DNA of 57,888 nt, filler included, from Jimgerdemannia flammicorona (GCA_003990765.1; 3 parts of 3 records of this genome joined end to end with filler, not necessarily neighbours in it), one strand, 5' to 3'. Positions 12,751 through 47,150 are shown, numbered from the whole stretch's first letter. The notes: a model not told the origin generated them from the letters alone. Numbers and translations: made by a program.

Positions 12751-13739
12751 TGCAGTTAGAGGGAGAAAAAGAAGAATTGTTCAGGAAAGAAAGAGATGGG
12801 CAGGGATTTGGCCTTTTAGCGAAATGGCATGAGCTATGGTGGTCGTTGTATTATAATAAAAGTTGGTCGGACGTCTAGCCCAATCCTCGTAATCGTCGAA
12901 AATAAGGGCACCGTCTGCAGCGCTAGAAGTGGTAAAAATAGCTGCATGTAACCACCAAGCATAGGAAATCTCGCTTTTTCGGGCCAGCATCCTCCCATGC
13001 GCGCGTAAGCCACCGTTGTGGCATTGTGGCCAGCTGCAGGAACCTGTCGGCCCTCGTCTGCCTAGAAACCAGAAGGATGCATCGTGCTACGACCGGATCG
13101 AATCACAGCAAAGCCAACCTTCGTTTCATGCTAGCAGCGAAGATTCATCCCACGCAACCATATGGCCAGCACACTTACAAATGAGAAAAGGACGCAGAAA
13201 ATGTCCCAAGACAGTCTGGTCTCAATCGTGATGTGACTAATTACCCCCTTACCTGCCTATTCGCATACATTTTTGTCTGGACTTGCTAAAAATCATGTGG
13301 AAATACAGCACTTATGCCTATCACATGTGAGAGCTCGGCCATTCGTCGAAATGGCAAACATAAAAAACAAATGCTTGTATGAAACATATTCATTATTAAT
13401 TGAGACCAGGGCTATTAGGCAACGGAGCACCACTACACAAAAAGGATCTTGGAAACGTGACGCGTGCCTTCTTAATTCGTCATATTACGAGTTATCTGCT
13501 CCGCAGTTCACTTGGAAACGTGTTCGATGACGTATATCGCTTCCGGAAATTAAACTCGAAAGAAAAAAAGTCGGTGAAGGACCAAACCGGACGAAACGGA
13601 GACTAAAAACTGAAAAGATGGAGATTCTTCATCCCCATTCGTCCATGCTTGAAAATCATTGGGAAAAATCAATATATAAATTTCGCAAATGCCCCTCTTC
13701 GATATGGGCCATCGTAAGTCACCATTTTTTATGCAAGAG

Positions 13740-13774
<35 letters not shown>

Positions 13775-15246
13775 TGATATCTCTGACCGTTTTCTTCTAC
13801 TCAAGAAGAAAGATGGACAGAACTTTATCTCGATGCAGACTGATTCGGTTTGGTTTTTCAATCTTAATCTACATGGCAAGAGATATCGATCAGATGTGAG
13901 ATAATCCATATAATAGTGGCTCAAAGCCAAGTGAAGAATGCCTCTATTTATTTATTTGCGCGGACGGTTTCAAATTCCCCTACTAGCCATTCGTCTACCT
14001 CTACCTACAGCAAACAACTGCCTGAATTGAATCCATGAACTATATTTATCGCAATGTTGCTGGGGTATCGGAGATCACTTGGGCAATGGGCATCTTGCAC
14101 GACCAGAATTGTTACCCCATATAGATTTTGTGACGCACCTACTCACCAACCAGTTGTGCTTTGCAAATATTTCGCTCTGCACATTGTCAGCTCCCGATCA
14201 TCTGCAAGCGAGCTAGTCACATCTCCTTTATCCACAAACCTGAGCCCAGTGCCCCCCCCAATCCCGTGTGAAGAAAGGGAGTGCTGACAGTGGAGCGGCA
14301 TTGAATTAGGATCGTGGGGAGAAATCTCTTTCATAGCAATCGTACACCTCTGCCAAGCTGAGGCGCTTGGCGGCCTCCGGTTCTTCGGTGTTACCATAAT
14401 TCCATTTTATTTTTAGTAAAATCGCGCAGCGGCTCCTTCCTCCGTCGATATCGACAGCACCACGTAAGCTGATCCTAATTCCGTTCTTTCCCGAAAATTA
14501 CATCCTACCAACCGAAGCTTTCATCCCCCACACATCAGCTGAGGAGAGGGGGCTTTTTTCTTCTTGCCGCAGTTTACCGTGGGAAATAATCTTCACCAGA
14601 TAGCGGTGCTCCATCTGCGCGTTTGTACGAGGGGCCAGGCAACGACGATGTGGTTGTTTGTTCCCAAACAGGTAGAACCCCACAAACTCTTCCTCGCCGT
14701 GGGACTGAAAATAGGTCGACTCCCTCGTTGTCGGAGCATTTGGATTAGAGAACCATAAGGAGATCGCGTGGCCTTATTCAAAGGCCGCAGGGGATGTCGA
14801 AAGAATATGCAGGCTTGGAGTCATAAAATAAAACCGTCAAATCCTATCCTACAAAATAAAAATTGTCATGGTGCATTGAAGTGAAGGGATGGGAGATGTT
14901 TGTAGTTGACTGAAAGGAGGTAAGGAAGTTGTCAACGAGTGCTGTTCCCGGGTGCGCGAAGTTTATATACTACAAACTCTTGACGTCTGCTCTGGCAACG
15001 GCCATTGAAGGCCATTGTAAACATAAAGATAAATGAATACGTTAACGTTCCTGCTTCTCAACTTTTTTGTATTGATGAGAGTCTCAGTCTACCGTTCGAT
15101 TTGCCATCCACAGCTTATTTATTAGTGACCGCGCCACGTGGAGGTGGCAGATGTCAAGTTGTGTATGAAAAGGAAAGAAAAAAAGGGTTGTCGTAGGTAG
15201 CCAACACAAACGATATTTTCGAGAATCATATACCTAGCCACAAATC

Positions 15247-16384: not shown

Positions 16385-17639
16385 GATTAGCGATAAACAT
16401 GGTGTCATTAAGAATTTATATAATATTTGGATCCCAGAATCACACTATTTTTACCTACTTCGTTCCTTCTCCCTGAGGATTAAAGGTAGAAGTTGATCTT
16501 CCTAACGTGTCATTGCTCTCACTCCATCTATTCTCAAAACAATACAATGTGATGAAACTTGTATGTCGACGTTTCTGGGTACAAATATTTTGAAAAAATA
16601 AAAAAAATAAAAAAAAAAAATACTGCGATTATGTGTAACTCACACCTTGACCTTTCAAATGTGGTACCCTCGGTGTTTACTTCCGTGGTTATGGATGGCT
16701 CGAGTCAGATCCGATAGACAGCATTGGCCATTACTAGCCACCGCTGTCTTGAATCACCATATGTCCAACTGAGACCCTAAGGTTCTAAGGACAGCAAAGC
16801 CTAGAGGAAGATCCTCCGAGCGTATTGTTTATCATTATAAGCCACCACTAGCCCATTCGTCACTCACACCAGCCAAGGTGGAGGTAGGACATCTTGACAA
16901 ACACTCCCCGGAGTATTTGTGCTCAAGACAAAAGGGGGGCGTGTAAGGGTACGATTTTCTGGTCGCGTTTTGAGTCCATTCTTGACCGCCTTTCTTGAGT
17001 CGGCTTTCGAGACGTGGTTCGATGTATTGAGTTTTCTCACGACCCAATCTTTTTGTAAGGGCTGATCCCTGAGTAATTAATGCCTTGGTGTTTCACTGAA
17101 AGTTGACTAAAGTTATTAAAATATAACTGAAAGATATTTGTACATTTATTTCAAAGGCTATCTAGTAAGTAGCAAGAGTATGTGGATTGGCAGAATGGCA
17201 TGTCATTGTTGGTTGCGAAATCCAGATTTCGTGACATCAAACAAGCAAAAGAGCATCGCGCAATGCCAATCACAAAAAGGAGCGTTGCGCAAACAAACAA
17301 AAATAACAAAGAGCAAAAAACATAGAGAAAGAAAAGCCTGCATGAATTACATAAGGAACGATTGCCATTTATAGTCAATAGAGATCGTTAGCCATCATTA
17401 GGAGGAAATCTCTGAGCGATGTGGTTCAATTACAACGATACATAAGTATTATCTACTTTGTTCTCTAGAAAATGCTGATTAGAGAATATAAGGATACAAT
17501 ATAAAAGGTGCCAAACAATGAAAACCCGATTTGGAAAAAGTTTTCGAAAATCTCTAATCGAGACCCAAGACCCAAGACTCAAACCCGACGCTAGCAGAAT
17601 AAAACAAATCAATACTACAAAGGGAACTAGATCGTCCAA

Positions 17640-19480: not shown

Positions 19481-22074
19481 GTTATCTAGAAAGAGTAGGT
19501 TTTAGATTATATATATATATATATTTTTTTATATAATATTAGATTATCTCTCTCTATTTATTCATATAGTAGTATATTGGAATGAAGTGATTGTTCTACA
19601 GAATGACATCATCTGTCTTATATTATAGTATTAATAGATAGAGAAGGGGTGAATTATCTTCACTTTTATCTAATTTACTATTAGTATATCTTTAGTAGAT
19701 TATGATATTATATATTATATAGTTATAGTATACTGACAGTTGTTCTTCATATTACTTATACTCAGGAGATGGGGTTGTTGATTCTATCTTGAGAGTTGTT
19801 TAGAGATATAGATTATATTATCTTATTTCTTTATTATAGTTGAAGTAGTTAGATATGAATTCAGATTGATACTTATACTAGTAGTTATCTCAATAGGTCT
19901 TGTAAATAGTTATAAACTATTATAAGTTTATTGGTAAGATTAGTAGGATGATCAAAGCTGGTAGAGATCCTTAACTAAAAGTTATCTTGATATTAGAGAG
20001 ATTATTATCTTATACTTTATTATTATTGAACTGAATTATATTATAGATGTCCTTTATGATATATCCAACTTGAGGCCTTTGCAGAATATAGTAGGAATGG
20101 TCTATTAGTAGTTCAGACATACTCAATATATTTCTGATTAAGTTCTTATACTATTTTATCAATTTGGCCATAGATCAGAGTAGTGATCATTTTAGCAGTA
20201 GTAACTTAGAGATAGAGAATAAAGATACTATACTCATAAAAAAGTTCTTGGTATTTATATACAATGAGCTTCTGGTGTTGAGATATTTCAGTAGTGCTCT
20301 AAATAAGCTGATCTAGATCAATTTGAAGTAGCTTATAGGTGATATAATTTGATATATCAATATTATTGTTTTGATTTCCAAATTAGACAATTAAATATTG
20401 ACATCATTCAAAAGCTCTTAATAATGCCTTTCTAATGATATTAAGAATATTAAAATTAGATGATATGTTGCCAAGTTATCAAGAAAAATATCTAACTTGG
20501 CAATTTTCAAAAGAATATTTTTATTAATAACTTAATAATACATTATCTACAGAGCACCTCTTCCTGATATATCTCATGTTATACAAATATATATCAACTA
20601 CTTTTATACCATTCTTTAGAGAAATATCTTAAGAACATATTCTTGAATCAGAGTTCTATAAAGTGTACTGAGCAGAGTGACCCCAGTATATTTGACTGAC
20701 AGTATGTAGGAAGAGATCAAAGAACAGAGTTGGAGATTATAAGAGGGTTACTTATTAGAGTAACTGTTACATAGTTCTGGAAGGGTTTTCTGGAAGTTCT
20801 AGATATTCTGAAAGACTGTTTTCTTAAGGTTGAGATCAATTTTATATAGAGTGCATCCTCTATACTTATTGATTTCAAGATCAGATTAATATTTTAACCA
20901 AAGTCCTTTTTTGGACTAGTTCTGAATATTCAGAATTTTCTATATTTCAGAAAGTTCAAGAAACTAAGACCAGCTTAGTTTAATTGGTGCATCACTGCAG
21001 ACAATACCTAATTAGGAAATTTTATAACATAGTTAGGAGTAGGATCTAACAGAGTTTAGTTTTACTTAAGAGTAGTTTGTGAGTTATTAAATAGATTTAT
21101 TCACTATTCATGATATTGCTATACTAAGAGTAGTTATGTGAAGAGATATTGTGGGAAAGTGTTCAGAAGTTATATTCAGATTGTTCAAGTCTGAGATTCT
21201 GAGATCTGGAGAAGGGGGTATTTATACTAGTGAGGAGCTATCTGGGCTAGGCTAAATATGAATATAGCACTTACTATCTTACTGAGTCAGAATATAGTCA
21301 TATAGTATAAGTATGATCTAATATATCAAGAGATCATCTGACTGCTGAGTCAGTTCACAGTTATATCATATAAGACTAATCTAACTATACTAATGATTGC
21401 TAAGCTATTTATAGATTTATATGCTATCTGAGTAGTCTTTGATGATATTACTATTGATGACATCATCTTTAATAAAGTCTGAGCAGTTTTCTAACTTCTG
21501 ATCTCATTAGTTTCAAAGGTATCATTACCTCTATCTCTTGTAAAATTAAGACTATTCTCAGTGATAGTAGTTATATAAGAATAACAGGTCTTGGTTCTCT
21601 TTTTTTTTGAACTACTGATACATTTGTGAGAACTGGTCATCTTTATTTAGGATAAGGGCTCTCATTATTATGGCTGGGGGTTCAAACCTCTCAGAAATGA
21701 TATTTTTTATAATCTGAGGTAATTTTTAATAGTAATATCTATCATGTGGATGGATTTAAGATTGGTTTTGATAATGTTGGCTTTTTTGAGTTCAGATGAA
21801 TCTGTCATTCTCTAACAGAGGTAATATAGATAGAGTGAACAAGGTTGTTCAAATATATTTTGCTTCTGCTAAGTAATGAGGTCTTATATAATTGCAGTGT
21901 ATCTTAGTCTTGAGTTGATAAGTGTGATTTGTGAACCTTTGATAGATAATATAGAGGCCTTTTTATCTTAGTTTGAGTTTGGTACTTTAGTTTCTTTTTA
22001 TAATAGTACAGTATACCAAAACTAGTTATAGAGGTTCAAGGTTGGTCTTATAGTTATAGTTAGTGCTCTGAATG

Positions 22075-22400
22075 AGTCAATTCGAATCAAATCCAGATTC
22101 GATTCATCATATGATGGTTTGATCCGAATCTCAAATCTGAAGCCATCCAAATCAACTTGGATTAATCCAAATCACCCCATCCAAATCACTTCATCTGAAT
22201 CACCCATCTGAACCACCCCAATCCGAATCACTCAATTTGAATCACTTAATCTGAATCACTCAATCCAAATCACTCAATCTAAATCACTCAATCTGAATTC
22301 TCCAATTTGAATCCTCCAATTTGAATCCTCCAATTTGAATCCTCCAATCCAAATCCTCATCTGAATCCTTCAACCGAATCCTCCAATCCAAATCCTCCAC
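22075..22400. repeat. Left subterminal short-repeat array of the hAT
   Basis: Dozens of AATC(C/T)(G/A)AATC-type units with a 10-15-nt period. Confidence 0.85.
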
Positions 22401-22539
22401 ATGACTCATATACCAGATGTGTCTACAATACATTATACATACATATATACACAATATACACACACATACACACATGCACATGCAAATATGCAAACACACA
22501 TGTTGACAGATCAGTCTTCAACAGTTCACAGTACCAATG

Positions 22540-23970
22540 ATGCTTCAAGTTAAATATCCCTGATAGTTCCATACCTTCCATACAATCCTCACTCTGAAAT
22601 CTGGTAACATTGTGCTAAGATAGGAGATGATGTTGTTTGTAATTATTGCAGGTAAAAAATTAAGACACACCTATTGACTTGTTTGACATATACATAATAT
22701 TGTTTCATCTACCCCTATAAACTGCACCAGCCAGAAGTTCAAAATGCTTGGTGGTATGACCTTGAATATGAATCGACACATAAAAGATAAGTACTCTGAC
22801 AAAATCAAAAAGAACATGGAGACAAATAAAATTGACATCCAAGCTATGGTGGGTATGTTTATCCGATTGCCCAACTATTTCTGTACCAACAATGTCATTT
22901 AATCAAAAATATTTAGCCATACTCTTTGGCAGAATTTCGAAATCAGCTCATTCACTGGATTGTGTGTACAGACCAGCCATTTACAACCATTGAGAGTGAT
23001 CAATTGCATAGCATCTTTGGCCTCCTCAAGTATGATTTATATTTGCCAAGTACTGATACTATTCATAAAGATGTCCTGGAGGCCTATAGGAAGGAGCATG
23101 ACAATCTCCGCCAGACACTTCACGTAAAATAAGAGCAGCACTGTGACCTTTGCAAGCTGAATTATATAAAAGAGCTCACCAATTTAACCTTACATTCAAT
23201 AAGTAGAATTTGGCAGGCAAAATTTTGTTTACGATTGACATATGGACATCCCCCAATGCAATTTCATTTCTGGGCATTACTGGTCATTGGATTGACCTTG
23301 ATTGGTAGCTTAAATCTCTCACCCTTGACTTCATCAAACTTGCTAGCCCTCATTCTGGAGACAATATTGCAGATGCTTTTATTAGTTATATCTAAGAGCT
23401 TGGGATCACAACCAAGGTAAAAAAAGGGGGGCTTACTGTCAGGTTGGTGTTTTGAGGGAGGTCCTTAAACAGAACAGATTTTGTTGGTTATTTATTTTCA
23501 CATAATTTGCCAACTGAATATTTCAAGTATAGATTTTGACCATTATAATGGACAATGCCATAAACAACTCAACATTTTTCCAAGTTTTAGCAGCCAGCCT
23601 CAAACAGAAAAATGTGGCCTTCAGTGCAGAAAGCTACCATGTGCAATGCCAGGCCCATGTACTGAACCTCGCTATTCAGGACTATCTTATACATATAGAC
23701 AAAACATCCAAGAGAGGAGGGGCCCTGAGTATAATTTCCAAGCTGTGCAAACTGGTTGTATCAGTCCAATCATCCCCACAATGATGAGACAAATTCACTG
23801 CACAGTATAGGACAATTAGTTTAGCCCTGAAAGAGCTTATATTGGATATCTGTACACATTGAAACTCAATATTTGCAATGATCCAGCACATGCTGGCATT
23901 TGCTGTAGTATGCATTCTTTTTTTCTTTGGTCAGCTAAAGCAACTGTTTCAGATGATAGAAGATTTATTT

Positions 23971-24001
<31 letters not shown>

Positions 24002-24013
24002 AAAAAAAAAAAA

Positions 24014-24049
<36 letters not shown>

Positions 24050-25130
24050 CCAATAGATTCAATGATGGCTGCCGACAAGGAAATATGGGCCGAGGTTTTA
24101 GGTGAAAGCAAGTGGGATATACTTAGGAATATTGTCAGAGTTTTGGAAGTAAGTGGTGGTTGCTCTGGCTCCACACTCATTTTGTCTGCCTCTGTATAAT
24201 ACAATACCTCACCACATATAACTGCCAGTGTTTCAACAATTATACGAAGGATATAGTCAAATAAACAACCCTGACAATAAGCTCTGTGATACCAGTATAC
24301 AATCTTCTGATTGACTGGCTAAAGGACAAGCTCAAGGATAGGCTGGAGGGTTGTAGTGATTTACAGTTAAGCCCAGATCAGAGAGACACTGTAGAGGTTG
24401 CTCTAAGCAAGCTCAGGAAATACTACTCCCAAACAGATACTGCCATATACTCAATCAGTACAGGTATATCAATATTGGTGTGTGGCTATTGCCTCTTCCA
24501 AAACAGAGGAAACTCCGCAAAAACTCACTCTCCTTTTCTTCGAACAGTGCTGGACCCATACTTAAAGCTACAATACCATAAAGATCAGGGCTGGGAGCAG
24601 CACTTCATTGAGAGAACCAAGCAGACTGTAATTGAAGTGTACTGGAAAAACTATGCACCACTGCAAGGTTCTGGCCAAAGTCTAGATGAATATGCTGAGA
24701 GTTCCCTCCTGTCCCACATTTACTTCAGCAGAAAGAAGAAGAGGGAGCCATCAGTGGAAGAGCTGCCATCAATAGATGAACTTACCATTTACCTTACCAG
24801 CGACTGCATGGTCCTGCTGGAGGGCACAGAGGTGCTCAACTGGTGGAAGGTGGGTTGTCAGGTGGGCATTGTCAGGTGGGTGTTGGGCCAATTTAACCCA
24901 CCAATCTAACCACCACTCTACCCACTGGGGCATGCAGCTGCATCAAACAGACTTCCCCAGCCTATATGGTATGGCTTAGGACTACCTGATGATTCCTGCC
25001 TCCAGCACTCCTGTCAAGCAGATGTTCTCAGATAGGGTGGACCTCATTGCCCCAAAGAGGTGTGTGCTGAATGCTGAGACAATCCAGGTGTGTATGTATC
25101 TGAAGTCTTGGTGGGGCTTGGGCCACTAAA
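22540..25130 (+). pseudogene. Spliced hAT transposase (BED finger, DDE core, C-terminal dimerisation domain) with stops and frameshifts
   Basis: SEIW*H...VVCNYC...MNRHIK; WIVCTDQPFTTIES; TIDIWTS...FLGITGHWID; HSGDNIA; IIMDNAIN; QCQAHVLNLAIQD; TH*NS; VLDPYLK; VLNWWK...FPSLYGMA*DYLMIPASSTPVKQMFS...LNAETIQVCMYLKSW. Confidence 0.92.
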
Positions 25131-25284
25131 ATTTGGTGAGTCCATAGATAAGTTGGTTGGCCTTGTGGAATATTTAATACCTTTCAAATTAATACCTTTC
25201 AAAATAATAAAAAAGGAAAAAAAACCTGAGGACTTGGCCTGGAGTTTGCAGCCCAAGTGGGGTGGGGTTGGTGGTAGCGGCAGA

Positions 25285-25755
25285 GAGAGCACACAATATT
25301 TGCAGCCCTCAGCCAGCAGCAAGGGGCAGCCCTAAGCTGCCAGTGCCTGGGTTGGTGGGTGGGTCAGTGGGCAGATCAGTGGGTCAGTGGAAGGAGTGCA
25401 CAAAATTTGCAGCCCTCCACTGGCAGCAAGGGGCAGCCCCAAGCCACAAGTATCCGGGTCAGGGGGGTAGGCGGAGGGAGTGCGCAAAATTTGCAGCCCT
25501 CCACCAGCAGTGAGGAGCAGCCCCAAGCTATCAGTGCCCAAGCTGTCAGTGTCCAGATCAGTGGGTGGGGTTGGTTGGCAGGTTGGCAGGCATGGAGTTG
25601 GCAGAGGAAGCATGCAAAATTTGTGGCCCTCTGCCAGCAGCAAGGGGTAGCCTCAAGCTACAAGTGTCCGGGATAGGCAGGGCAGGTGGAGGGAGTGTGC
25701 AAAATTTGCGGCCCTCCACCAGCAGCATAGGGGCAACTCCAAGCCATCAAGGAGT
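25285..25755. repeat. Five ~60-bp direct repeats with variable G-rich spacers, between the convergent 3' ends of the two hAT genes
   Basis: Core gtgcaaaatttgcagccctccaccagcagcaaggggcagccccaagc at ~25290, 25395, 25480, 25612 and 25695. Confidence 0.85.
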
Positions 25756-26045
25756 CTGGAGTGGAGGGTACTTCTGGCAGTTGGAGGGTGCTTCTGGTGG
25801 TCGGAGAGTGTTTCTGACAGTCGAAGTCACTGGTTCAGGTCCCATGGGTACCCTGGCCCTATGTTGCAGCACTGCACCAGTGGCACTATAGAGCAGAGCT
25901 GAGGGGCTGATAGGGCCCTGTATAATGGCTAAGCTAGTGCTACATAAGAGGTGCCCGGCCCATATAAGACTGCCCAATCCATACAAAATGGCTGCCTAAC
26001 CCACACAAAATGGCTGCCTAACCCTTATGAAAGATTGTCTAACCC

Positions 26046-28174
26046 TCACAAAAACTGTTCCACCCACTGGTCCCAGGCCTTGATGAGCCTATCATCCATT
26101 GTGAGTATGACAACTATTGTATCCGAGCTCTCCTCGAAGGCGATGGTACTATGGTAGTTATATGGTTGGAATAGGATAGCCATGTTGGCTACAAATAGGA
26201 CCCCAAAACCATAGGTGAGGTCATACTAGACTCCACCACTATTCTCCCAGGTTGGGCCCTTCCTTTCCGGGATATAAAACATTATCAGGGTAATATTGTT
26301 GTCTGTGTGTATAGGCAGGGAAAGGTTGCGCCCAATATATCCTAATGTGACATAAGCATACAGTTGGATGAACTCTTGGCCCAGGACCTCATACTGCCAG
26401 GTTGTGCTGGTGGATGCCTGCCCTTGGTCCAGCCCTGGGAGTCTCGGCTTGGAAACCTACCAAAATAGATGGCAACTGGTCAGTCCTTTTTGCATACGGG
26501 GGGGCAGAAACCCCCCAGACTACAGTACCCTGAAAAAGCAGAGCTCCTCACCTCATATGGCATGCTAAATTGCACCAAGAATGTATGTACAGCTGTACCA
26601 AGATCACCACCAAGCTGGTCTGCCATATGCTCTACCAATCTGCTCAAAGAACCCCAGATCATAGCCACCATCACCATACAGGCCATGTTATGCTTACATG
26701 CAGTTTGCTCTTTGACAGCACTTCTAAAGTTCTGATAGAGGTACAGAATCTTGTACATCCCTGGAATTGTATCAAAAAGAGTATGTTGGCGAAGAGTTTG
26801 ATTTATCTGGGGAGGGGTTAAAAAAAAAGGGAGACGAGTGCGGGGGATTTTGGAACTCCAGAACCCACCCTTTGTCAGTGTTGCAGTATACTCAATTCCC
26901 ATCCAAACCCCCCTCCTTGCTTTTTTCGCCCCCTCTTTTCTGCCACCCAGTATTTGATGCAATCCTTGTAAATCTCATTGATATGGTGGTGAAGCTCATT
27001 GCCATAGAGATTCCTTACCACCACCACAACCACCTCTCCACATTTGTTAATAAAGATATAGTTCTCTTCATCGTTGGTTACTCCTACTGGCCAATGGACC
27101 CCTTGGTCAAGTATGATTGGCTCTGATTCGAATGTAGACCCCCAAGCCTTGATGATGATGCTGGTACTGCTCATGCTGAACATCTTGCCCTTGAATTTCT
27201 CTATTTGATCAGATACCAGATGTGGTTGAACTCAGGTAACTTTGAACTCTCCTTTCCAATGGAACTGAGCCCTGATCTGAGGGACTGAGATAAGTATGCA
27301 GATGGGTTGCATGTGGGCAGGTTGCGTGCAGGTGGGTTGCATGCAGGCGGGTTGTGGGCAGGTTGTGTGCAGGTGGGTTACATGTGGGTGAGTTGTGTGT
27401 AGGCGGGTTGTGTACAGGCAGGTTGCATACAGATGTGGGTGTTTTTTAGGAGGAGATCACATAAAAATGAAATTAAATAAAACACAGAGATGGGTATTTC
27501 AGAAAAAGAGTATGAGTGAGTGAGTGAGTGAGCTGCATGCCAATGAGTTGCATGCCAATGAGTTGCATGCTGATGAGTTACACAAGTTGCACAAGATTGC
27601 TCACAAAGGCTTGCTTCTATTCCTTTTGAGACCTCTGCCATGCGATACATTGACTCAACAGCTCAGCTACCAAAGGTATGCCCTGCAACGTCCACCAGCC
27701 TTTCTTCATCTTGACCAGATGTTGCAAATAAAGTTGGCAGATCTCGCCATAGAGCTGTGGACCCTAAGAAAAGTATGAGGTAAATTGGGTCATGCTGGGG
27801 AAGTTTAAATAAATACAAGTAAACAAGTGGCAGCTGAGTGAGCAACCTACATCTACTATTGGCTACTCCAAAAAGGCTGCTGTGTATATAGCTGTGAGGT
27901 CTGTGAATTCTGAGATCTGAAGGGCTACCATGAGTTATTGCCGGAATTCTCCCTCATCCCTGCCATCGCCATCACCATTGCCACTGCCACTGCTGTCATC
28001 CCTTTGGCTCTTGATGAGTAGCTTATGTACTATCTATATGAGAAAGAATCTAATATTGTCAGCAGAGAGTGCGTTTCCACCTTGAATACTCCCTCTTTTG
28101 ATGATCATTGCAGAGTGAAAAATGAGTAGACTGGACCAACATATGAATTAAGGGCTGCTGTTTTGTTTGCTCAT
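26046..28174 (-). pseudogene. hAT-borne, intron-containing putative 2OG-Fe(II) dioxygenase, TET/JBP-like; a few nonsense transitions
   Basis: Phase-0 exons ~27276-26869, 26806-26552 and 26456-26046; upstream exons and start are tentative. Last exon: YVTLGYIGRNLSLPIHTDNNITLIMFY...ENSGGV*YDLTYGFGVLFVANMAILFQPYNYHSTIAF...IVVILTMDDRLIKAW, with HxD at 26309-26301 and a distal H at 26153-26151. Confidence 0.6.
27298..27600. repeat. Short 10-15-bp tandem repeats (gcaggttgtg; atgagttgcatgcca), probably in an intron of the cargo gene
   Basis: Direct inspection. Confidence 0.7.
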
Positions 28175-28319
28175 AATGCAGCAGGAAAGAATAAAGAAAA
28201 AGAACAAAGAAAAGAACAAAAGAAGAGAGAGAGCAAAAGAAAAGGGTGATGTCACCAAAGTGTGGTAGGAAAAAAAAAACAAGAGTGAAATGAACAAAAG
28301 AAAGAGTGATATCACCAAA

Positions 28320-28560
28320 GATTTCAATCCAGATAGATCAATCTGGATGGACCAATCTGGATGGACCAATCTGGATGGACCAATCCAGATGGACCAATCC
28401 AGATGGACCAATCCGGATCAATCCGGATGGATTAATTCAGATGGATCAATCCAGATCAATCTGGATCAATTCAGATCAGATCACGAGACCAATCTGAGTT
28501 GATTCGAATCCATCACATGACGAATCTGAATTGAATCTCATCCAGATCAACTCCATCCAT
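28320..28560. repeat. Right subterminal repeat array of the hAT
   Basis: 14-bp (atggaccaatcYRg)n and related GATCC/GATTC units. Confidence 0.85.
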
Positions 28561-29149
28561 TCGGAGCACTAGTTGTAGTACTTCTTCTGATATTCTTGTA
28601 TTTTGGCAGTAGGTTCTCATACTTACTGGCATATTTTGTATAACCAGGTGATCTCTTCAGTAACTTGTTTTGTAGTCTTGTATGTGGTTTCTGAATTAGT
28701 TCTGAGGGTAATATGTAATTTTAGTGGCTTAGAGGTTGTGCACTTACAACTCTCTCCTTCTTAGTTTTTGATGTTCTCATTGAGGCCTTCTAGTTTGATC
28801 TAGTGTTGTTGTATCATTTGAATGGTTCTTGTGGCTGTGTTTGTTGAGAATTTTTTCAACTTTGTATTCTTCTTAATCATTAATAATGACAGATACAGGT
28901 GGTTTTATAGTTCAGTTCAGAAATATGTCTAGGACTTTCTGGAGTAGAGGTCTGACATAGCTGTCAACTTTGAGAAAGTCTTCTTCAGAGTTCTTGGGTT
29001 CTTCTTTGGATGGTCAGATGGAGATAGCAAAGAGAGAGCATTTTTTGGCTAATTTCTTGAGTTGTAGCTTATTGATATAGATGATCTTTGAGTCAGAATT
29101 ACTAGAACTGAGTGGGTCTTTCTTGCCTTGTAGTTTGAAATTGTAGCAT

Positions 29150-29500: not shown

Positions 29501-29689
29501 ATAGTGATAATTTTAGTTGTAAGAGCTTTCCTTCTGTTGGTTCTTCTTTGGATCAGTTTGTTGATATAAGAGAAGTAATTATTGATTATTTAGGAAGAGT
29601 ACATTCCAATACCATAGAGGCATCAGCCATTTGGTACATATCTATCTTCAATTTTCTTGTAGAATTATTCTTCTTTACTTGTAGTAGGT

Positions 29690-30120
29690 TGGGCTAGAGC
29701 CTTGTTTAATGAGCCAAATCCTTTGAATTCTTGGATGGTAGGTAGTAGTTCAGAGACTTCCTTGACTGTCAGAGTTGACTTGATTTTTTCAAATAGAATC
29801 TGGGTAATATAGAAATCAATGGGGATCTTGAAGAGTATCCAACTATAGTTTTGGATAAGAACAATAATTTCACCAGTATAATCCTCATCAATGACTCCTC
29901 CTTCTACTGAGAGTTCTTTCAATACTAAGCTACTGCAACAGTATATTCTTCTAATATATCTTTCAGGAATTTGAATGCTAATCTCTATATAGACTTGCTT
30001 GACTTCTCAGTTGGAAACAATAGCTTCTTCAGCTATATATAAGTCATAACTAGCTGTTTTTTGACTTTCTTTGATTGGGGCCTTGGCAGTTTGTCTTAAC
30101 TTAACAAAGTCCAATATCTT
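29690..30120 (-). pseudogene. dUTPase domain of the LTR element
   Basis: VKL...AKAP...ASYDLY (motif 1), GGVIDEDYTGEIIV (motif 3), ITQI (motif 4), PTIQEFKGFGS (motif 5). Confidence 0.9.
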
Positions 30121-34700: not shown

Positions 34701-37499
34701 TTTAGAAGAAGATGATTAGAATTTCTAGAGTGCTGGGAGAGATGATAGTGCTTTGTGACTTGGTACTATAGTCAGGGAGGTGGGTGGGTGAGTAATATCT
34801 GGGGCTAGTGGCATTACTTTATAAGAACAAGAGCAGAAGGGAGTACTGGAAGAACTGGTGGCCTATCATACTTCTGGATATGGACAGAAAGTTGGTCACT
34901 AAGGTGGTGGTGGCAAGACTGTAGAAGATGGCCCAGCAAGTCTTGGGTGAGGAGCAGTAAGGTTTTGTAGGAGGCTGGCTCATTAGGGATGATATGGCTT
35001 AGGTGCATGATATCATTGAAGAGACTCAAGCCTGTGGACTGAATGGAAGATTGGTCTTCTTGGATTAGAAAAAGGTATATGATTATATTTAGTAGGTCTG
35101 GTTGGTGAAGATACTGGATAGGATTGGTATCCCTCAGTAGTTCTGAGTGACAATGATCAGCCTACTAGAAGGGAGTAGAGCAGTGCTTATATATAATGGG
35201 TATTGAGGGGTAGTATTTTCTCTGGGTAGGAGTATTCCTTTTATTTTGTATACTCTATCCTTGGAGCTATTGATAGATAGGATTTAGTGAAAGGTAGTGG
35301 GGTTCTTAGTATTTAGCATTGTGTAGAAAGTTGAGGCCTTTGCAGATAATATAGTAGTTAGTCTGGGATCAGTTGCAAATGTTAAAAAACTCCAGAAAAT
35401 GGTGCAGTAGTATGAGGTATACTCTGGGGCTAAACTCAACTGACATAAGTATGAAATGATGGTATTGGGTAATGGTCTGGTGGGAGGAGATGTCATTGGA
35501 ACAATTGTCTCTACTAGAGAGGCTGTGAGATACTTGGACATCTATCTTTCAATATATAGGTCAGTCCTACCAAGATCTTGATAGAAGCAGCAGGTGACTA
35601 TTTGGGGAGAGGCCCTGAGGAGCTAGGGAGGCCACCACTTGTCTTTGGTGGGATATGTTTCAATTTTGAATGTCTACTGGCTACTAAAGCTATAGTATTT
35701 GATATATAATCTAGACTTTTCTGCCTGAGTGGTGAAGAGGCTATTGAAGCTGGCCAAAGGTTAGATCTGGGCTGGGAGGAGGAGTCAGATTAGTTGAGAA
35801 ATCTTGTCATTACCAGTGGCTAGAGGAGGTCTTGGGCTGGTTGACTTTCCAAAGAGGCTGCATTGTCTGAGAGTATAGTGGCTGAAGAGATCTGTAGAAC
35901 TGAGGGGTGGTAGCTGGGTTCCTCTGATAAAGAAGGTCTGGGAGATGAGATATTCATCAAGAGGCTTTACAGAAGATCTACTATTCTTGGTTTGGCTTCC
36001 AAATAGTGGGTGCATGTGGTATAAGAGCTTCTGGTGTAGAGTAGTTGGTGAGGCACACTATATCAGTATTTGTTAGCAAGGGGCTGAAGAAGAGATACTT
36101 TGGGGTCTGATGATATAGAGATAGGATTGAGTATTTTTGAGAGATACTCTTCTGATTGACTTCAATATTGGTGATAGGGTTGAGTACCAGAGGGGGTTAG
36201 GACAGGATGTTTGGCCTAGTGGTTGACAGATAGTGGGTATTGGAGAAGAGTGGGACTAGAATGGGATCTGGGCCTAGAGTGTGAAGATATAGTAATAGAT
36301 ATCACTTAAGTACTGAGTGGTTTGGTAGTACATACTATAGAGGAATATTATACTCAACTTTCACTCAGGTCATCTGGTAGAGAGGAGTAACTTTGACTGT
36401 GAGGAGTATTATAATGTAGGACAGAAAAGGAGATTTGTGCAGATACCAGAATATTGGCTGAGAGAGTGTGAGGTACTAGCAACTTTTGGTTAGTAGTTGG
36501 GAATTGATTGGGTATTGTGAGAAGGAGAGATAGTGAGAGGAGATGATGGGAGGATCTGAGAGATAGATTGTTAAGGAGGATTGAAAAGAAGTAGCTTACT
36601 ATAGATTGGGTTTTGGCTGTATAGATGGAGCTAGTGGGATACTGATTGTTTGTTTTTAAGGAAGAGAGATTTTTGAGATTGAGGAGTGGCTATTGTGGTG
36701 GGAAGGGTTGATGGAGGACATCTTGATAGGCTGGTGGCTAGGATGGAGTCTATAGGACAGTTGGAGACATTATTTGATAGAGAAAATTTGTGGACAGAGC
36801 AGAGAGAGAGTTGGTATAGTGGGTGGTAGGGTGGTGTTTAAGTGAGAAAGTATGGGGGGGGCCTCCCCTAGGAGGATTGAGTAGTGGGAGGAGATACTAT
36901 ATTTTTATTTAATAGACTAGTAATAAATAGCAAAGTCCAAGTAACTATAAAATATATATCTATCTAATTTTAATATTCTTGATATCATTAGAAAAGCCTC
37001 TTTAAGAGCTTTCAAATGATACCATAATTATCATAATTGGATGATTTTTCATCAAGTTATTAATATAAATATTTAATTATCTAATTTGGAAATCAAAACA
37101 ATGATATTGATATATTGAATTCTCTTCAAATTATACTATCTATAAGCTACTTTGAATCAATCCAGATTGGCTCATTCAGAGTACTAATATCTATATTATA
37201 GTAATAATTAACCATATCTTTCAGAAGATGGCTGATTTGATAGTAGTTTGAGATTTGTCTGATTCAATAGGTCTTACTAAGCATGTTTCAGGGCATTCTA
37301 TCAGGCTTCTATAAAATAGAGGAGTATTAGGCTATAGATATTTATGAGAGACAAGAGCTCTGTGGTCTGATTGATAATAATATTACAAATGTCAGTATAG
37401 GTATATTTGTAGACTTCAGTAGTCATAGCTGGATATATATTTGAGAGTTATAGTTATTGTTTAGTTTGTTATGGTTCTCTGTTTTGGTATATCATATGT

Positions 37500-38516
37500 C
37501 TGGTATATATGCTTTTAATCTTGATTAGTGAAGTTCTATTTTCATACATCTTATATTCTGTAACTTTGAGTTAACTCAGCTTCATAATCTGTAACTTTAG
37601 TTTGACTTAGCTTAGAATTTTTTATCAATATCAAAAGTTTTTTCTCAGTAGTATATACTAATTGACATACTGAGATTATTAATTTTGAGCTTAAGCTAGA
37701 TTCTCAATTATAATTTGGCTCAAGTTGCATATTTAGAGAAGAAATTCTTTAATAGCTTTAATAGTAAAGAGTTTATCTATAGTTCTAATAAGAGTCAGAG
37801 AGGTGTTTGGATTTTATTCTATATTGATAAAGAATGAGATCATTTTAAGGAAGTTTGTTTGTTGTTATTATAGATAAACTCAACTATAGTAAGATGTTTA
37901 TACTAATTATCTTATCTATAGAAAATATAGTTTCTTAACATTTGCTCTAGAGTCCAGTTTATTCTTTCAGTTTAGCTATTAGTTTTAGGGTAAAAAGCTA
38001 TAGATAGTATTAGTTTTGTTCCAAGGTATAAGTATAGAGCTTTCCAAAAATAGCTAGTAAATTTCATATCTTAGTCACTAATAATGATCATAGAAAGACT
38101 ATGATAGTAGAAGATATTATTAAACAGAAGAGTAGCAATTTTAGGTACTATTATAGTAGTAGATATGAAGTAGGTTTGTTTGCTGAGATAATCAATGAAG
38201 ATAATAATTGTATCTTTTCTGTTCTTAGTTCATAATAGTTATATATCCAATTGGCAGAAAGTACTGAAATAGGATAAAGTAGTTCAGATTTTATTAGAGT
38301 TAAGAACTTGTTACATTAGCAGATATTACAAGAAGTAATATAAATCTTCAACTAGTCTGTCATATAGGGCCAATAGAAGTTTTGGAAGATAACTTCATAG
38401 TATTTATTAAATTCTAGATATCTGGCTATAAGAGAATGATGACATTCAAACAGAATAGTTCTTTAGAAATCTTAATTATTAGAAACATACAATCTATTCT
38501 TATAATAGATAGTATT

Positions 38517-38520
<4 letters not shown>
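37500..38520 (-). mobile_element. Ty3/gypsy integrase remnant (likely the outermost element of the nest)
   Basis: LFNNIFYYHSLSMIIISD*DMKFTSYFWKAL..LGTKLILSIAFYPKTNS*TERINWTLEQMLRNY is a decayed HGLP..IVSDRD..FTS.FW...STAFHPQTDGQTER.NRTLEQMLR. Confidence 0.85.
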
Positions 38521-38564
<44 letters not shown>

Positions 38565-38664: not shown

Positions 38665-41600
38665 CCTATCTGATTCCCCTAGGGCCCCCCCTCCCCCCCC
38701 CCAACTCCCTCTTGATTAAAGACCACTAGGTTATTAATCACCTCCATCTGCCCACCACTCTGTCTACAAATCACTTCTTTTTTTTAGTCACTTGGACTCT
38801 GCCTTTATTACCAGTCTATGAATAAGTATACAATATCACCACCTACTATCCGATCCTCATAGGGGAGCCCCTCTCCATCCCTTCATGAATAAAGATCACC
38901 CTTTCACCAATAACTCCAACTCTCTCACTGCTCCATCTACATATTTTCTCTACCAAGCAGTGCCTCCAGCCCCCCTGCAGCCCCCAACCAAGCCACCAGC
39001 CTGTCAAGGTGTCTTCCATAAGTCTCTACCACCATGATACCCAGCTCTCTAAGCTCTGTTGCCTCCCATCCTCAAAAACAAATAGCCAGTGACTGGTCAG
39101 CCCAACCCAAATAGCCAATACCCAACCTAAGGTAATCCACTCCTTTCCTACCCCTCCAACCAATTGATCCCTCAAGTCCTCCCACCTCCCCCATACTTCA
39201 CCTCACCCCCAAGCAGTCCCCGATGACCCACCAGAAGTCTCCCAACACCTCACACTCGCCTAACCAATGTTCTGGTATCTGTACAAAGCCCCCTTCCTGC
39301 CCTACATTATGGCACTCCTTATAGTCGAAGCAACCCCTATAATAAGGTGCCCTGAGTGAAAGTTGAGCATTACATTTCTCCTCAACATATGCCACCAGAC
39401 CACCCAGTACTTCAGTGGCATCTATTTTCACACTGTGGCACTCCAGCTCCAAATACCATACCAGTTCCATTCATCTCCAATTCCAACTCCTTGCCAACTG
39501 CTAGGCTACAGATTCTGGCCTGGTCCTCTTTGGCATTCTATTCCATCTCCAATGTCAAACTCAAGCAAAGACATATCACCTAGCAGAATGCTATCCCATC
39601 TCCACATCACCAGATCCCAAGCCTCCTCCCCCTCATTCCCCTACCAGTGAATACCAATACAGTGTGCCCCCTCCACAATCCCCTACCAGAAACCTTTATA
39701 TCGTAATTGCATAGTGTTCTGAAGTCCAACCAATGAGAGAAGATCACCAGTTGAGCCTCTCAGTGATGACCGCCTCTCCCAGACCTTCTGCAGCAGGGGA
39801 ACCCAACCCCCTCCTTGCAACTCTACTGCCCTCTTAAGCCACCAAGCTCTCAAGCAATGTAGTTATTCGGGAAAGTCCACCAGCCTAAGACCATCTCTTG
39901 CCACTGGTAGGGACAAGGTCTCCCAACCAATCTGGCTCTGTCTGCCAGCCCAAATCCATCCCTTGGCTACCTTCACCAATCTCTTCACCACTCAGGCTGG
40001 GAAGTCCGGATGATAAGCCAAATACCACAGCTTTGGCAGCCAATATACATTCAAAATCAAGACCCATCCTGTCAGAGAAAAGTGTCTTCCCCCCCAACCC
40101 CACAGGTCCTCCTCCCAAATTCCAATTCACTGCTCCCACCAAAGCCTGGGCAGAACTGACCCATAGACTGACAAATAGAAGCCCAAGTACTACACTGTCT
40201 CACTGGTGGGGACAATTGTTCCTATAACTTCTCCTCCCATCAGGCCATTGCCTAGTACCATTGTTTCACACTTGTACCAATTTAGCTTCGCTCCAGAGTT
40301 CTCCTCATACCACTCCACTGTCTTCTCTTGAGCTCCTCAACATCAGCGATCGAACTCAAACCAACCACCATATCATCTGCAAAGGCCCCAACTTTCCACC
40401 CAATGCTATAGATAGAGAGCCCCACTATCCTCCACCTAATTCTGTCTATTAGGGGTTCCAGGGAAAGAGCATACAAGATGGGGAATAGCAGGTCCCCCTG
40501 GGGCACCCCCCTACCCAGAGGGAATGCTACCCCTTTATGCCCATTATACATGAGTGCAGCCCTACTCTTTTCCAGTAGGCTGACCATTGCTGACTGAAAT
40601 TGGATTGGAACCCCCATTCTATCCAATACTCTCACCAGCCAGACTCATCACACCCGGTCATAAGCCTTCTCCTGATCTAAGAAGACCAGATGCCCATCCA
40701 GTCCACAGGTTCTAGCCCCTTCAATAACTCCATGTACCCAGGCTGTGCCATCTCTAATGAGCTGACCACTCACAAATCCCCTCTGCTCAACATCTACAAC
40801 TTGCTGGGCTACCTTCTGTAGCCTTATGACCACCACCTTAGTTACCAACTTTCTGTCCATAGCTAGCAACATTATTGGCTGCCAGTTCTTCCAATCCTCT
40901 CACCTTCCTTTGTTCTTATAAAGCAGCATCACCAGCCCAAGATCCTGCTCCCCCACCCATCTCCCTGTCTGCAATATAGAGCACACAATGCTGTCAACTC
41001 TTCTATCACACCAGGGACTCCAACCATTCACTTCCAGAAGTCCCAGGGTAGGCCATCCTCCCCAGGTGCTGTACCTGAGACTGTCATGGCAAGAACCTGG
41101 CAGATCTCATCCTCCTTTACAGGCATCACCAGGTCACCTAGTCCCTTAACTTATAGTGGGTACCAATCCTCCAATGTTCAGTCAATGGTAGTAACATCCA
41201 CCCCACCCTCCTCCTCACTCCACAATCCACTCCACCGCTCCTTCAGTGATCCAAAAATATCCTGTACACCATGCACTAGTATACCATCCAAGTCAAGTAC
41301 CCCCTCCCACTATTGCTGTACCCTTCTCACCTTAAGAGTCCTCATGAGAAACTTAGAAGGCCTCTCCCCTTTCTCCAGCCCCTGCCAACAAAGCCATGCC
41401 ACCAAGCTTCACACCCTTGCCTCTTCCTCTTCCTGCAGCACCTGTTGAAGTTCCCCAACCTCCATCTTTGCCCTCATTACTCTCCAATCTTCTTCTCTCT
41501 CCACCATTACCAGTCTCGCCCACTCCTCCAGAAGCCTAGCCAATCTAGTAGAAGCCCAATGCACTCTCTGCCTTCACTGCTTCCCAGCCTCCTTGCCAGC

Positions 41601-44600: not shown

Positions 44601-47150
44601 TAACCTGAATGGTACTGGAGAAAGATGGTCTGATGCCCATTCACAAATCACTTCCACCAGACAGTGGCAATGTCTACCCTAGAGACCCCATCCAATCCAC
44701 TACTTTGTCAGTATATCTCCCAACAACCCCTCCCATCTTAACAACCTCTCCCACAGACCCAGCTGTTACCTCTCCTCCAAAATAAAAAGCCAATGTCCAG
44801 CTAGCCCTACCTATACAGCTAAAACCCACCCTACAGTAAGCTATTCATTATCCACCCCACCTACCAACCTAGTTCACAAATCTTCCCAGTGACCTCTCTC
44901 CCCCTCTGGTCTCCTCTCTACACCCAGCCAGTCCTCTACCATTATCCAAAAGTCCCCCAGCACCTCACACTCTCCTAGCCAATATTCTGATATCTGTACA
45001 AATCCCCCAACTTGTCTGATATTGTAGTATACTTTACATTCCAGTAGGCCACCATCCATCAGATGCCCAGCTTTGAAATTCAACATGACATTCCTCCTTA
45101 GTATCTGCCACCATACTACTCAGTACTTGGGAGGAAGCCACCTCTACACCTCAGCACTCCAAGCCCAGACTTCTGTCCAATTCCACTTCTTGCCAATTCT
45201 CACTACTTGCCAACTACTAGGCCAAAGATCCTGACCAAGTTCCCTCTGACACTCCACTCCTTCACCAATATCAAATTCAATAAGAGGAGTGCCCCCCAGA
45301 AGCAATCTGTCCCATCTCTACATAGCTGGTCCCCACGGCATCTCTCCTTCATTACTATGCTAGCACAAGCCAATGCAGTGTGCTCTATTAGCTACTCCCC
45401 ACCAGAAGTCCTTATACTGCAGCTGATGGCTTCCACCTAGGTCTACTAGGGAAAGCAAATCCCCCAAGGATTCCCTTGGGGAGAATCTCATCTCCCACAC
45501 CTTCTACATCAGCCATACTCATCCCCCTCTTCTCAGTTCCACAGCCCACTTCAACCACCAAGCTCTCAGACAGTGCAGCCTCTTAGAAAAGTCTACCAGT
45601 CCTAGCCCCCCTCGAACTACTGGTATTGAAAGGGTTTCCCAACTGATCTGGGACTGCCTCCTAGTCCAAATCCAGTCCCTAGTCAACTCTTCACCACCCA
45701 AGCTGGAAAGTCCAAGTAATAGGCAATATATCACAGCTTAGGGAACCAGTAGATATTCAGAATCATTATTCAGCCTATGAGAGAGATATGGCAACCTCCC
45801 CAGCCTCAAAGTGCCTCTCTCCAGATAACCACCTTCCTCTCCCACCACACTCACAGCAAGACTGATCCATAAATTGAGAGGAAGATACCTAGATACCTCA
45901 CTGCCTCTCCTGCTGGGACAATTGTTCCAATGATGTCTCCTCTCACTAACCCATTTCTCAGCACTATTGTCTCACACTTATGCCAGTTGAGTTTTGGTCC
46001 AGAGTATACCTTATATCATTCTACTATCTTCTTAAGAGCCTTAACATCTGTCACTGATCCAAGTCTAACCACTATATTATCCACAAAGGTCCCCACCTTC
46101 CACACCATACTATAGATAGCAAGCTCTGTCACCTTCTGCTGAATCCTATCTATCAAAGGTTCTAAAGAAAGGGCATATATAATAGAAGGCAGTGGATCCC
46201 TCCAAGGAACTCCTCTTCCTAAGAAAAACACCATACCCTAGTGACCATTACACATCAGCACCACCCTACTTCCCTCCAGCAAATTTAATATAGAAGCTTG
46301 AAATAGAGGGGGAACTCCTATTCTGTCCAGCACCTTGCCTAGGCACACTGACCAAACACAGTCATAGGCCTTCTCCTGGTCCGGAAAGACTAGTCTCTCA
46401 TCCAATCCACTAGCCCTTGCCCCTTCAATGACACCATGGACCCAGGCTGTCCCATCTCTGATAAGTCTGCCACTAATAAAGCCCTGCTGCTCTTCCCCTA
46501 ATACCTGTTGGGCAATCCTCTGTAATCTCACCACAATCACCTTAGTTACCATCTTCCTGTCTATATCTAACAATATAATCAGCCTCCAGTTCTTCCAATC
46601 CTCCCTTCTCCCCTTGTCCTTGTATAATAGGGCCACCAGTCCTAGGTCCTGCCCTCCCATCTACTGACCCCTCATGAGAACAAAATCACAGAGAGCTGCC
46701 ATCTCACCTAATACCCCAGGGACTCCCACCATCTTCTTCCAAAAGTCTCAAGATAGACCATCCTCTTCTGGTGCTATACTAAGCTTAGTTGCTACAAGAA
46801 CTCTCTAGACCTCCTTCTCTTGGACTGGAAGGATCAAAAAATTCCCCAGGCCCTCCACTTGTGGTAGCTCTTAGTTCACCAGAGTGTCTCCAATTACCTC
46901 TGCATTAGTACTCTCTTCCTCCTTACTCTACAGACTCCTCTACTGCTCCTTTAGCAACCCCAAGATCTATTGTATACTATGTACAATTTCTCCCTCAGCA
47001 TCAAGGACTCCATCCCACCAATGTCACACCCTTCTTATCTAGAGGAGTCTGGACAAGTACCTAGTCGGCCTCTCCCCCTCCTCCAGCCCCTGCCACCTCA
47101 ATCTAGCTGCCATTCCTTTTAAATGTGTCTCCTTCTCCTCTTATGATACT
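38665..47150 (-). mobile_element. LINE copy C: 3' half (RT and C-terminus) at 47150-44655 plus 38765-38665, split by copy B
   Basis: WKNWRLIILLDIDRKMVTK, QQGFISGRLIRD, DQEKAYD, GRGVP, GGLGLVDF. The flanks of copy B rejoin colinearly with copy F. Confidence 0.85.
38778..44642 (-). mobile_element. LINE copy B, full length (~5.9 kb), L1/Tx1-like: ORF1 ~44545-42521, ORF2 (APE endonuclease-RT-CCHC) ~42490-38890, mutated
   Basis: 12-bp TSD ACAAATCACTTC at 38766-38777 and 44643-44654; AATAAA plus an A8 tail. Motifs: SLNINGL, LLQD, LGGDFN, RIDWI, LVFLDQEKAYDRV, GVPQGD, AFADD. Confidence 0.95.

Follow-up and report, generated by a model that had tools for sequence, protein, structure and literature searches.

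A dead hAT transposon in the CpG-poor repeats of Jimgerdemannia flammicorona carries a second, putatively TET/JBP-like gene

We analysed a stretch of 57,888 nucleotides, filler included, from the fungus Jimgerdemannia flammicorona (GCA_003990765.1; three parts joined end to end with filler), which is called the window throughout. Positions 22061-28571 of the window are a DNA transposon of the hAT superfamily, once autonomous and now dead, in which a second gene, here called the passenger, lies tail to tail with the transposase gene. The explanation that fits best, to which we assign a probability of roughly 60%, is that of a dead hAT with an 8-bp target-site duplication (TSD) in CpG-depleted fungal repeats, whose four-exon passenger is TET/JBP-like and closest to the published PE-type proteins (Kojima, 2025; PMC12730594) but carries HxD. 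Under the same estimate, the family of the passenger is small and sparsely sampled, and its predicted layout matches that of TET/JBP-like Fe(II) dioxygenases of fungal DNA transposons. The original prediction, made by a model from the sequence of the window, had proposed a cleanly bounded hAT with such a gene as a candidate anti-silencing system.

The termini, terminal inverted repeats (TIRs) and internal repeats of the element are the following:

22053-22060, no strand: left TSD copy, GTTATAGT, identical to the right octamer at seven of eight positions.
22061-22074, plus strand: left TIR, TAGTGCTCTGAATG, from TIR pairing and the start of one X3 contig.
22162-22399, plus strand: left subterminal array of some 15 copies of a short 14-bp unit (Tandem Repeats Finder).
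25279-25751, no strand: internal G-rich degenerate repeats between the convergent genes (70-72% identity in self-blastn; Tandem Repeats Finder).
28325-28456, plus strand: right subterminal array of approximately 9.7 copies of the 14-bp unit CAATCCAGATGGAC (Tandem Repeats Finder).
28558-28571, minus strand: right TIR, TAGTGCTCCGAATG, from TIR pairing.
28572-28579, no strand: right TSD copy, GTTGTAGT, from flank comparison and the X1 empty-site contig.

The two TIRs match at 13 of 14 positions, and when up to two mismatches were allowed the 14-bp pattern was found four times in the window, with 0.89 matches expected. In order to compare the element with sequencing data, we used contigs of 62-465 bp from four soil-metagenome runs, aligned on 21500-29100. 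One X1 contig contains the empty site (19 letters equal to the left flank up to 22052, a single octamer, then 28572 onward), and since the octamer occurs there only once, the length of the TSD is fixed at 8 bp. One X3 contig begins its match exactly at 22061, where it is preceded by a different, unrelated flank, and one X3 contig passes from 21988 to 28570. These contigs support the boundaries independently. Arrays of short subterminal repeats such as those present at both ends are typical of transposase-binding arrays. Collectively, the TIRs, the 8-bp TSD, the empty-site contig, the subterminal arrays and a match to the hAT dimerisation domain identified the element as a hAT, bounded as cleanly as the original prediction had it.

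The transposase is encoded on the plus strand:

22600-25129 (start approximate), plus strand: multi-exon pseudogene of the hAT transposase, interrupted by several in-frame stops, from three-frame translation.
23306-23308, 23393-23395 and 24977-24979, plus strand: examples of its stops (TAG, TAA and TAG).
24938-25126, plus strand: hAT C-terminal dimerisation domain, PF05699, with a TAG read as X (Pfam).

With X placed at the TAG, the dimerisation domain (Dimer_Tnp_hAT) scored 36.3 bits (E 4.8e-9), above the cut-off of 21.4, and its stop-free piece of 49 amino acids alone scored 20.9 bits. Upstream blocks recognised by eye read ..IDIWTS.., ..MDNAINN.. and ..CQAHVLNL..; they resemble the D-x-W-T-S, D-N-A-x-N-N and C-x-A-H-x-L-N-L signatures of the RNase-H-like DDE core of hAT transposases. 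These pieces matched no Pfam family. At 23394 and 23395, within the TAA stop, most of the X1 read depth carried another base, which indicates that other copies of the element are less decayed. Within the transposase gene region we also observed a tract of roughly 90 bp (23960-24057) that is rich in A and whose A runs are broken by TTTT, and tracts similar to it occur at 13724-13775, 16583-16620 and 38513-38564.

The hAT is itself nested inside an outer element approximately 16.9 kb long, whose inverted ends (20292-20466 and 36956-37186, about 175-230 bp) are 77-88% identical and whose first 14 bases (TAGTGCTCTAAATA, TAGTACTCTGAATG) nearly equal the TIR of the inner hAT. The TIR-like sites at 20292 and 37186 were considered as ends of the inner element and rejected, as they are the long inverted ends of the outer one. 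No matching 8-bp TSD was seen at the outer element (TATTTCAG versus ATATCTAT), which is possibly a non-autonomous relative that uses the transposase of the inner hAT. A dUTPase fragment (PF00692, E 4.8e-13; 29668-30006, minus strand) in AT-rich, CpG-free repeat DNA probably belongs to a degenerate retroelement that lies inside the outer one.

The passenger was modelled as a minus-strand gene of four exons and about 376 codons at 27709-26046, guided by P0003, an intact protein of 374 amino acids, and by the intact four-exon gene on the soil-metagenome contig L001. Its exons and lesions are:

27709-27605, minus strand: exon 1 (...LLSQCIAWQRSQKE*KQAF), ATG at 27709 and donor GTGAGC, from the L001-guided model.
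27276-26869, minus strand: exon 2 (IRAQF...YIFINKCGEVVVVVV...KRGRKKQGGG...TLTKG), from tblastn and the exon model.
26760-26552, minus strand: exon 3 (GMYKIL...SMPYE), upstream acceptor CCAG and downstream donor GTGAGG, aligned to P0003 residues 167-227.
26456-26049, minus strand, followed by the TGA stop at 26048-26046: exon 4, with HTD, GG-x-Y, YGFGV and the distal His.
27619-27617, minus strand: lesion in exon 1, in-frame TAG.
27234-27232, minus strand: lesion in exon 2, in-frame TGA.
26908-26913, minus strand: lesion in exon 2, 1-bp deletion in a C-run, where X1 contigs have an extra C.
26228-26226, minus strand: lesion in exon 4, in-frame TAG, where relatives have W or F.

When P0003 was compared with the window by tblastn, it aligned in three collinear minus-strand blocks (residues 91-154, 167-227 and 234-343). 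Exon 4 shares 74% identity with P0001 (E 7e-68) and 35% with P0003; exon 1 matched the first exon of L001 weakly (tblastn E 5.8), and both share the exon end ..K.F|GT. Intron 2 splits a Gly codon at the same site and in the same phase as in L001, and introns 1 and 3 lie at corresponding positions. Because of the collinearity with P0003, the GT..AG introns placed as in L001 and a length of about 376 codons compared to 374 amino acids, we conclude from sequence comparison that the predicted passenger is a real gene. A second spliced and pseudogenised gene, opposite and convergent to the transposase, had been anticipated by the original prediction, and the motif strings quoted there are present in the window. 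Its nonsense positions held in part: TGA 27234-27232 and TAG 26228-26226 are in-frame, whereas the TGA at 26877 falls out of frame behind the 1-bp deletion at 26908-26913, and 26868-26761, taken there as coding, is intron 2.

As regards the lesions, the extra C at 26908-26913 is present in seven X1 contigs, with a depth of 90 of 116.7, and a single C-to-T change at the CpG of an Arg codon (CGA) would produce the TGA at 27234-27232. Both genes of the element are inactivated, and since they are broken by transition-dominated mutations, this copy is a fossil without present function and not a working system.

In order to find relatives of the passenger, the 136-amino-acid last exon was searched with HMMER against 1.84 billion representatives, which gave seven matches at E ≤0.001, P0003 included. 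Five of them are family members, and P0005 and P0007 were rejected as repeat-driven false matches. Word-based searches yielded P0023 only when P0003 was the query, no new homologue with profile A2, and no homologue when the N-terminal 118-amino-acid piece was compared with longer proteins; a locus search with alignment A3 gave two metagenome loci among 138 pattern matches. In the 21 family proteins analysed, the HxD position is covered in 19, of which 15 have HxD and four HxN, and the distal H[GS][ST] is kept in 18; the window has HTD and YH, respectively. The HxD and the distal His on which the original prediction relied are conserved across the family, together with the motifs GG-x-[FW]-Y-[ND] and YGFGV. 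The HxN variants occur in sequences that resemble decayed copies, and P0006 and P0022 are truncated.

Searches of the ESM Atlas with two family members that are 45% identical, P0003 and P0004, both reached Tet-like clusters. The top cluster for P0003 (score 0.96, 209 of 256 features in common) is a basidiomycete cluster with PF20515 on 15% of its members. For P0004, a cluster named 'Tet-like 2OG-Fe(II) oxygenase' ranked third (score 0.90, 175 features, PF20515 on 72% of members) and a cluster with PF12851 on 31% ranked sixth. Because of the conserved HxD...H, these PF20515 and PF12851 neighbours and a collinearity with PE-type proteins seen by eye, it is plausible that the passenger encodes a TET/JBP-like dioxygenase.

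Several results weigh against this reading, some of them concerning the protein and others its place and effect in the element. In canonical TETs, 2-oxoglutarate (2OG) is bound by an Arg that follows the distal His at a distance of about 15 residues. In the passenger family, an Arg 10-15 residues past the distal His is absent from every aligned member, so that a caveat raised by the original prediction for the window copy holds for the whole family. Pfam searches with five passenger pieces of the window, two passenger exons of L001 and six relatives (P0001-P0004, P0006 and P0023) gave no match up to E 1-5, PF12851 (Tet_JBP) and PF20515 included; the profile check that had been proposed against PF12851 was hence negative for window pieces and intact relatives alike, and the claim of a TET/JBP-like dioxygenase stands on its motifs, ESM Atlas neighbours and PE-type collinearity but not on Pfam or on the 2OG-binding Arg. 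A PHROGs search of the passenger gave no relevant match, and searches of PDB sequences retrieved no oxygenase. AlphaFold2 models built from shallow alignments reached a mean pLDDT (predicted local distance difference test) of only 38.0 for P0003 (11 rows) and 37.0 for P0023 (12 rows) and are unusable as structures, although these low-scoring models suggested a beta-rich C-terminal half. In the ESM Atlas search P0003 obtained a recognition value of 2142, short of the mark of 2300 set by the tool, and such matches are leads only. Finally, it was only by eye that five collinear motifs were found in common between the passenger family and three Agaricus bisporus PE-type sequences from Table S1 of PMC12730594: a basic patch followed by ..SAG.., HxD/E, LD.GG.F, GV and, after 19 residues, HG[TS], and GLS..T..R, with the same 19-residue spacing from GV to the distal HG on both sides.

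Those empty Pfam, PHROGs and PDB searches, the pLDDT of 37-38, the missing Arg and the HxN of four of the 19 family sequences would also be expected if the passenger were unrelated to TET/JBP, that is, another small beta-rich protein (some other cupin or oxygenase, or a non-enzymatic accessory factor of the transposon) in which HxD...H is coincidental. We regard this as unlikely, considering that the ESM Atlas leads to PF20515 and PF12851 clusters from two members as distant as P0003 and P0004, that the motif order and spacing agree by eye with those of PE-type proteins and that the HxN sequences look like decayed copies.

CMD1 of Chlamydomonas is a TET homologue that uses vitamin C, not 2OG, and makes 5-glyceryl-methylcytosine. 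Since the canonical Arg is missing, there is room for CMD1-like chemistry in the passenger family, and the protein could be TET-like in fold without being a 2OG-dependent oxidase of 5-methylcytosine (5mC), using another co-substrate as CMD1 does or acting on another base (thymine or N6-methyladenine, 6mA). Besides the absence of the Arg from all members, the published HHpred searches of PE-type proteins point in this direction, as their best match was CMD1 (E 1.4) compared to E 19 for NgTET (Kojima, 2025, section 3.2.3). Nevertheless, these published values are weak, and a semi-conserved Arg about eight residues past the GLS strand, found in four of six aligned lineages (the window, P0001, P0002 and P0003), could replace the missing one; in P0023 it comes one position earlier, and the P0004/L001 group lacks it. 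On balance, a TET-like protein that does not use 2OG on 5mC seems to us improbable.

With respect to the place of the passenger in the element, passenger and hAT were seen on one molecule in this copy only, the contigs that bear on the linkage question (150-465 bp) cannot link genes, and no transposase was found within the 3.7 kb of L001. Furthermore, the element itself is CpG-depleted (observed/expected ratio 0.18, compared to 1.45 for TG and 1.34 for CA), so any protection against methylation-dependent decay failed in this copy. The occurrence of both genes between the TIRs of this one copy, and the approximately 900 bp of unrelated G-rich repeats that separate them, would be compatible with a passenger that is no constituent of the transposon family, either as a host gene captured in this copy or as a separate nested element. 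We consider this very improbable in view of the X1 contigs, which covered 21500-29100 in 30 of 30 bins. A total of 2385 X1 contigs aligned there (253 at ≥99% identity, 622 at 95-99%, 952 at 90-95% and 558 below 90%), and their counts per site were alike in the passenger (11-13) and the transposase (5-17) regions. They differed from the window by 265 A>G, 238 T>C, 121 C>T and 148 G>A changes, compared to 22 transversions. Because contig counts and divergence are alike over both regions, the passenger region equals the transposase region in repetitiveness and in decay, and it is multi-copy. In addition, the gene, introns included, is complete between its ATG and its stop, no inverted-repeat pair brackets 26046-27709 among the 14 pairs inspected, no TIR/TSD pair flanks the passenger inside the element, and none of the 15 contig joints listed, out of 30, skips it. 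The passenger is thus best read as part of the repeat, in line with the TET/JBP-like hAT cargo that we prefer.

The contig L001 (1-3666) contains the intact four-exon passenger homologue followed by a second multi-exon gene, with a GC content of 34% and a CpG observed/expected ratio of 1.2. A second contig, L002 (1-2870), is 99% identical to it over 2717 bp but has a stop within the passenger homologue. The two contigs differ by 23 mismatches, of which 19 are transitions; in 15 of these, L002 shows a G>A or C>T change. At the end of L001 (3490-3620) there is an array of short GATTTGA-type repeats, and the 11-mer CGAATCAAATC is common to L001 and positions 22083-22093 of the window, in the left subterminal region. 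This array may represent the subterminal part of a related hAT, although a search for a TIR up to the contig end found none.

The repeats around the element have lost nearly all CpG, as had been stated from the sequence of the window at the outset: in 2-kb bins the observed/expected ratio is 0.00-0.20 at 20-58 kb, compared to 0.88-1.20 at 1-20 kb, and the genes at 1-19 kb, a ubiquitin hydrolase and an aspartyl protease among them, have a normal CpG content. Taken by themselves, the short GT..AG introns and the ESM Atlas neighbours would suggest a fungal host, probably a basidiomycete. Among the best-supported 40 of 1047 differences, only nine of the 33 sites with T/A in the window and C/G in X1 lie in a CpG context, and many of the listed changes are TpG>TpA or CpA>TpA. 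This suggests that decay of the kind caused by repeat-induced point mutation (RIP), or a two-step decay, acted beside plain CpG deamination. Elsewhere in the window, the reverse-transcriptase fragments (PF00078) at 40285-40644 (minus strand, E 2.3e-7), 46241-46660 (minus strand, E 1.1e-8) and 55571-56371 (plus strand, E 6.4e-20) come from decayed retroelements, and the region of 38-50 kb has a strong strand bias of G versus C, with a GC skew of up to +/-0.48.

If the passenger is the TET/JBP-like dioxygenase that we favour, the protein made by active copies would bind Fe(II) through its His-x-Asp...His triad and would oxidise or otherwise modify 5mC on the DNA of the element itself, and this modification may counteract both methylation-based silencing and C-to-T hypermutation. 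A more speculative proposal, which we put forward very tentatively, is that the passenger represents a fourth, undescribed clade of transposon-borne TET-like enzymes: PE-like, with HxD and without the 2OG-binding Arg, it would use a co-substrate other than 2OG or leave a 5mC adduct instead of 5-hydroxymethylcytosine, as in CMD1-like chemistry, and it would have been recruited by an 8-bp-TSD hAT in a non-rust fungus of the soil, with intact relatives such as that on L001 in AT-rich fungi without CpG loss. Should the passenger be TET-like, the independent captures of such genes by transposon lineages would extend to a canonical hAT outside the rusts, a divergent clade missed by current Pfam models would be added, and intact members could reveal whether transposon-borne TET-like proteins really remove or rewrite 5mC and which co-substrate they use.

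Among the known systems, AG-type TET proteins are reportedly associated with Kyakuja/Zisupton (KDZ) transposons, as is said to have been described by Iyer et al. in 2014. The CcTET/KDZ system has in common with the present element the idea of a transposon-borne 5mC oxidase, and CcTET has been shown experimentally to oxidise 5mC and 6mA (Kojima, 2025, section 3.4). It differs in that the transposase belongs to another superfamily and in that CcTET-like proteins are recognised as TET/JBP; no similarity between them and the passenger was detected. CMD1 is likened to the passenger through the HHpred match of PE-type proteins, but it is a host gene whereas the passenger is transposon cargo.

PE-type TET/JBP-like proteins are encoded by transposons of Agaricus, Laccaria, Gymnopus and Pezizales, and HxE is their hallmark (PMC12730594). 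Their predicted structures match CMD1, NgTET and CcTET with E values below 1e-5, and other activities are explicitly left possible for them by Kojima (2025). Like the passenger family, they have no canonical Arg following the distal His, escape ordinary profile searches wholly or almost wholly and are borne by DNA transposons; the difference is that the three sequences compared have HxE (HAE or HTE), in contrast to H[TV]D in the passenger family.

The original prediction did not know TET/JBP genes as cargo of hAT elements. According to Kojima (2025; PMC12730594), however, such genes are carried by 11 lineages of DNA transposons in fungi, hAT included, and hAT7, named after its 7-bp TSD, comprises 20 TET-positive hAT families of six Puccinia species with PU-type proteins. 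hAT7 and the present element are alike in superfamily, in having a TET/JBP-type gene beside the transposase and in the C-to-T decay of repeats in a fungal host. They differ in TSD length (7 versus 8 bp), in their termini (CAACGG in hAT7-1_PGr, the one hAT7 terminus seen, versus TAGTGC here) and in their cargo, as the PU-type has ..GGTMW..GWRK.., HxD and the Arg, while the passenger resembles the PE-type rather than the PU-type. Within the first 400 characters of its cells, Table S1 of the same article lists no element that starts with TAGTGCTC and lacks the motifs HTDNN, THTD, HVDED, SGYVG, FYNM, GRCA and YGVGV, and full-text literature searches retrieved no description of a TET-like gene, whether PE-like or with HxD, in a hAT with an 8-bp TSD. 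Anti-silencing is the standard hypothesis of the literature on TET genes in transposons (Kojima, 2025, section 4.2). A hAT with TET cargo and the anti-silencing idea are therefore already published, and what is new here is the pairing of a PE-like protein that has HxD with a hAT of the canonical 8-bp-TSD type.

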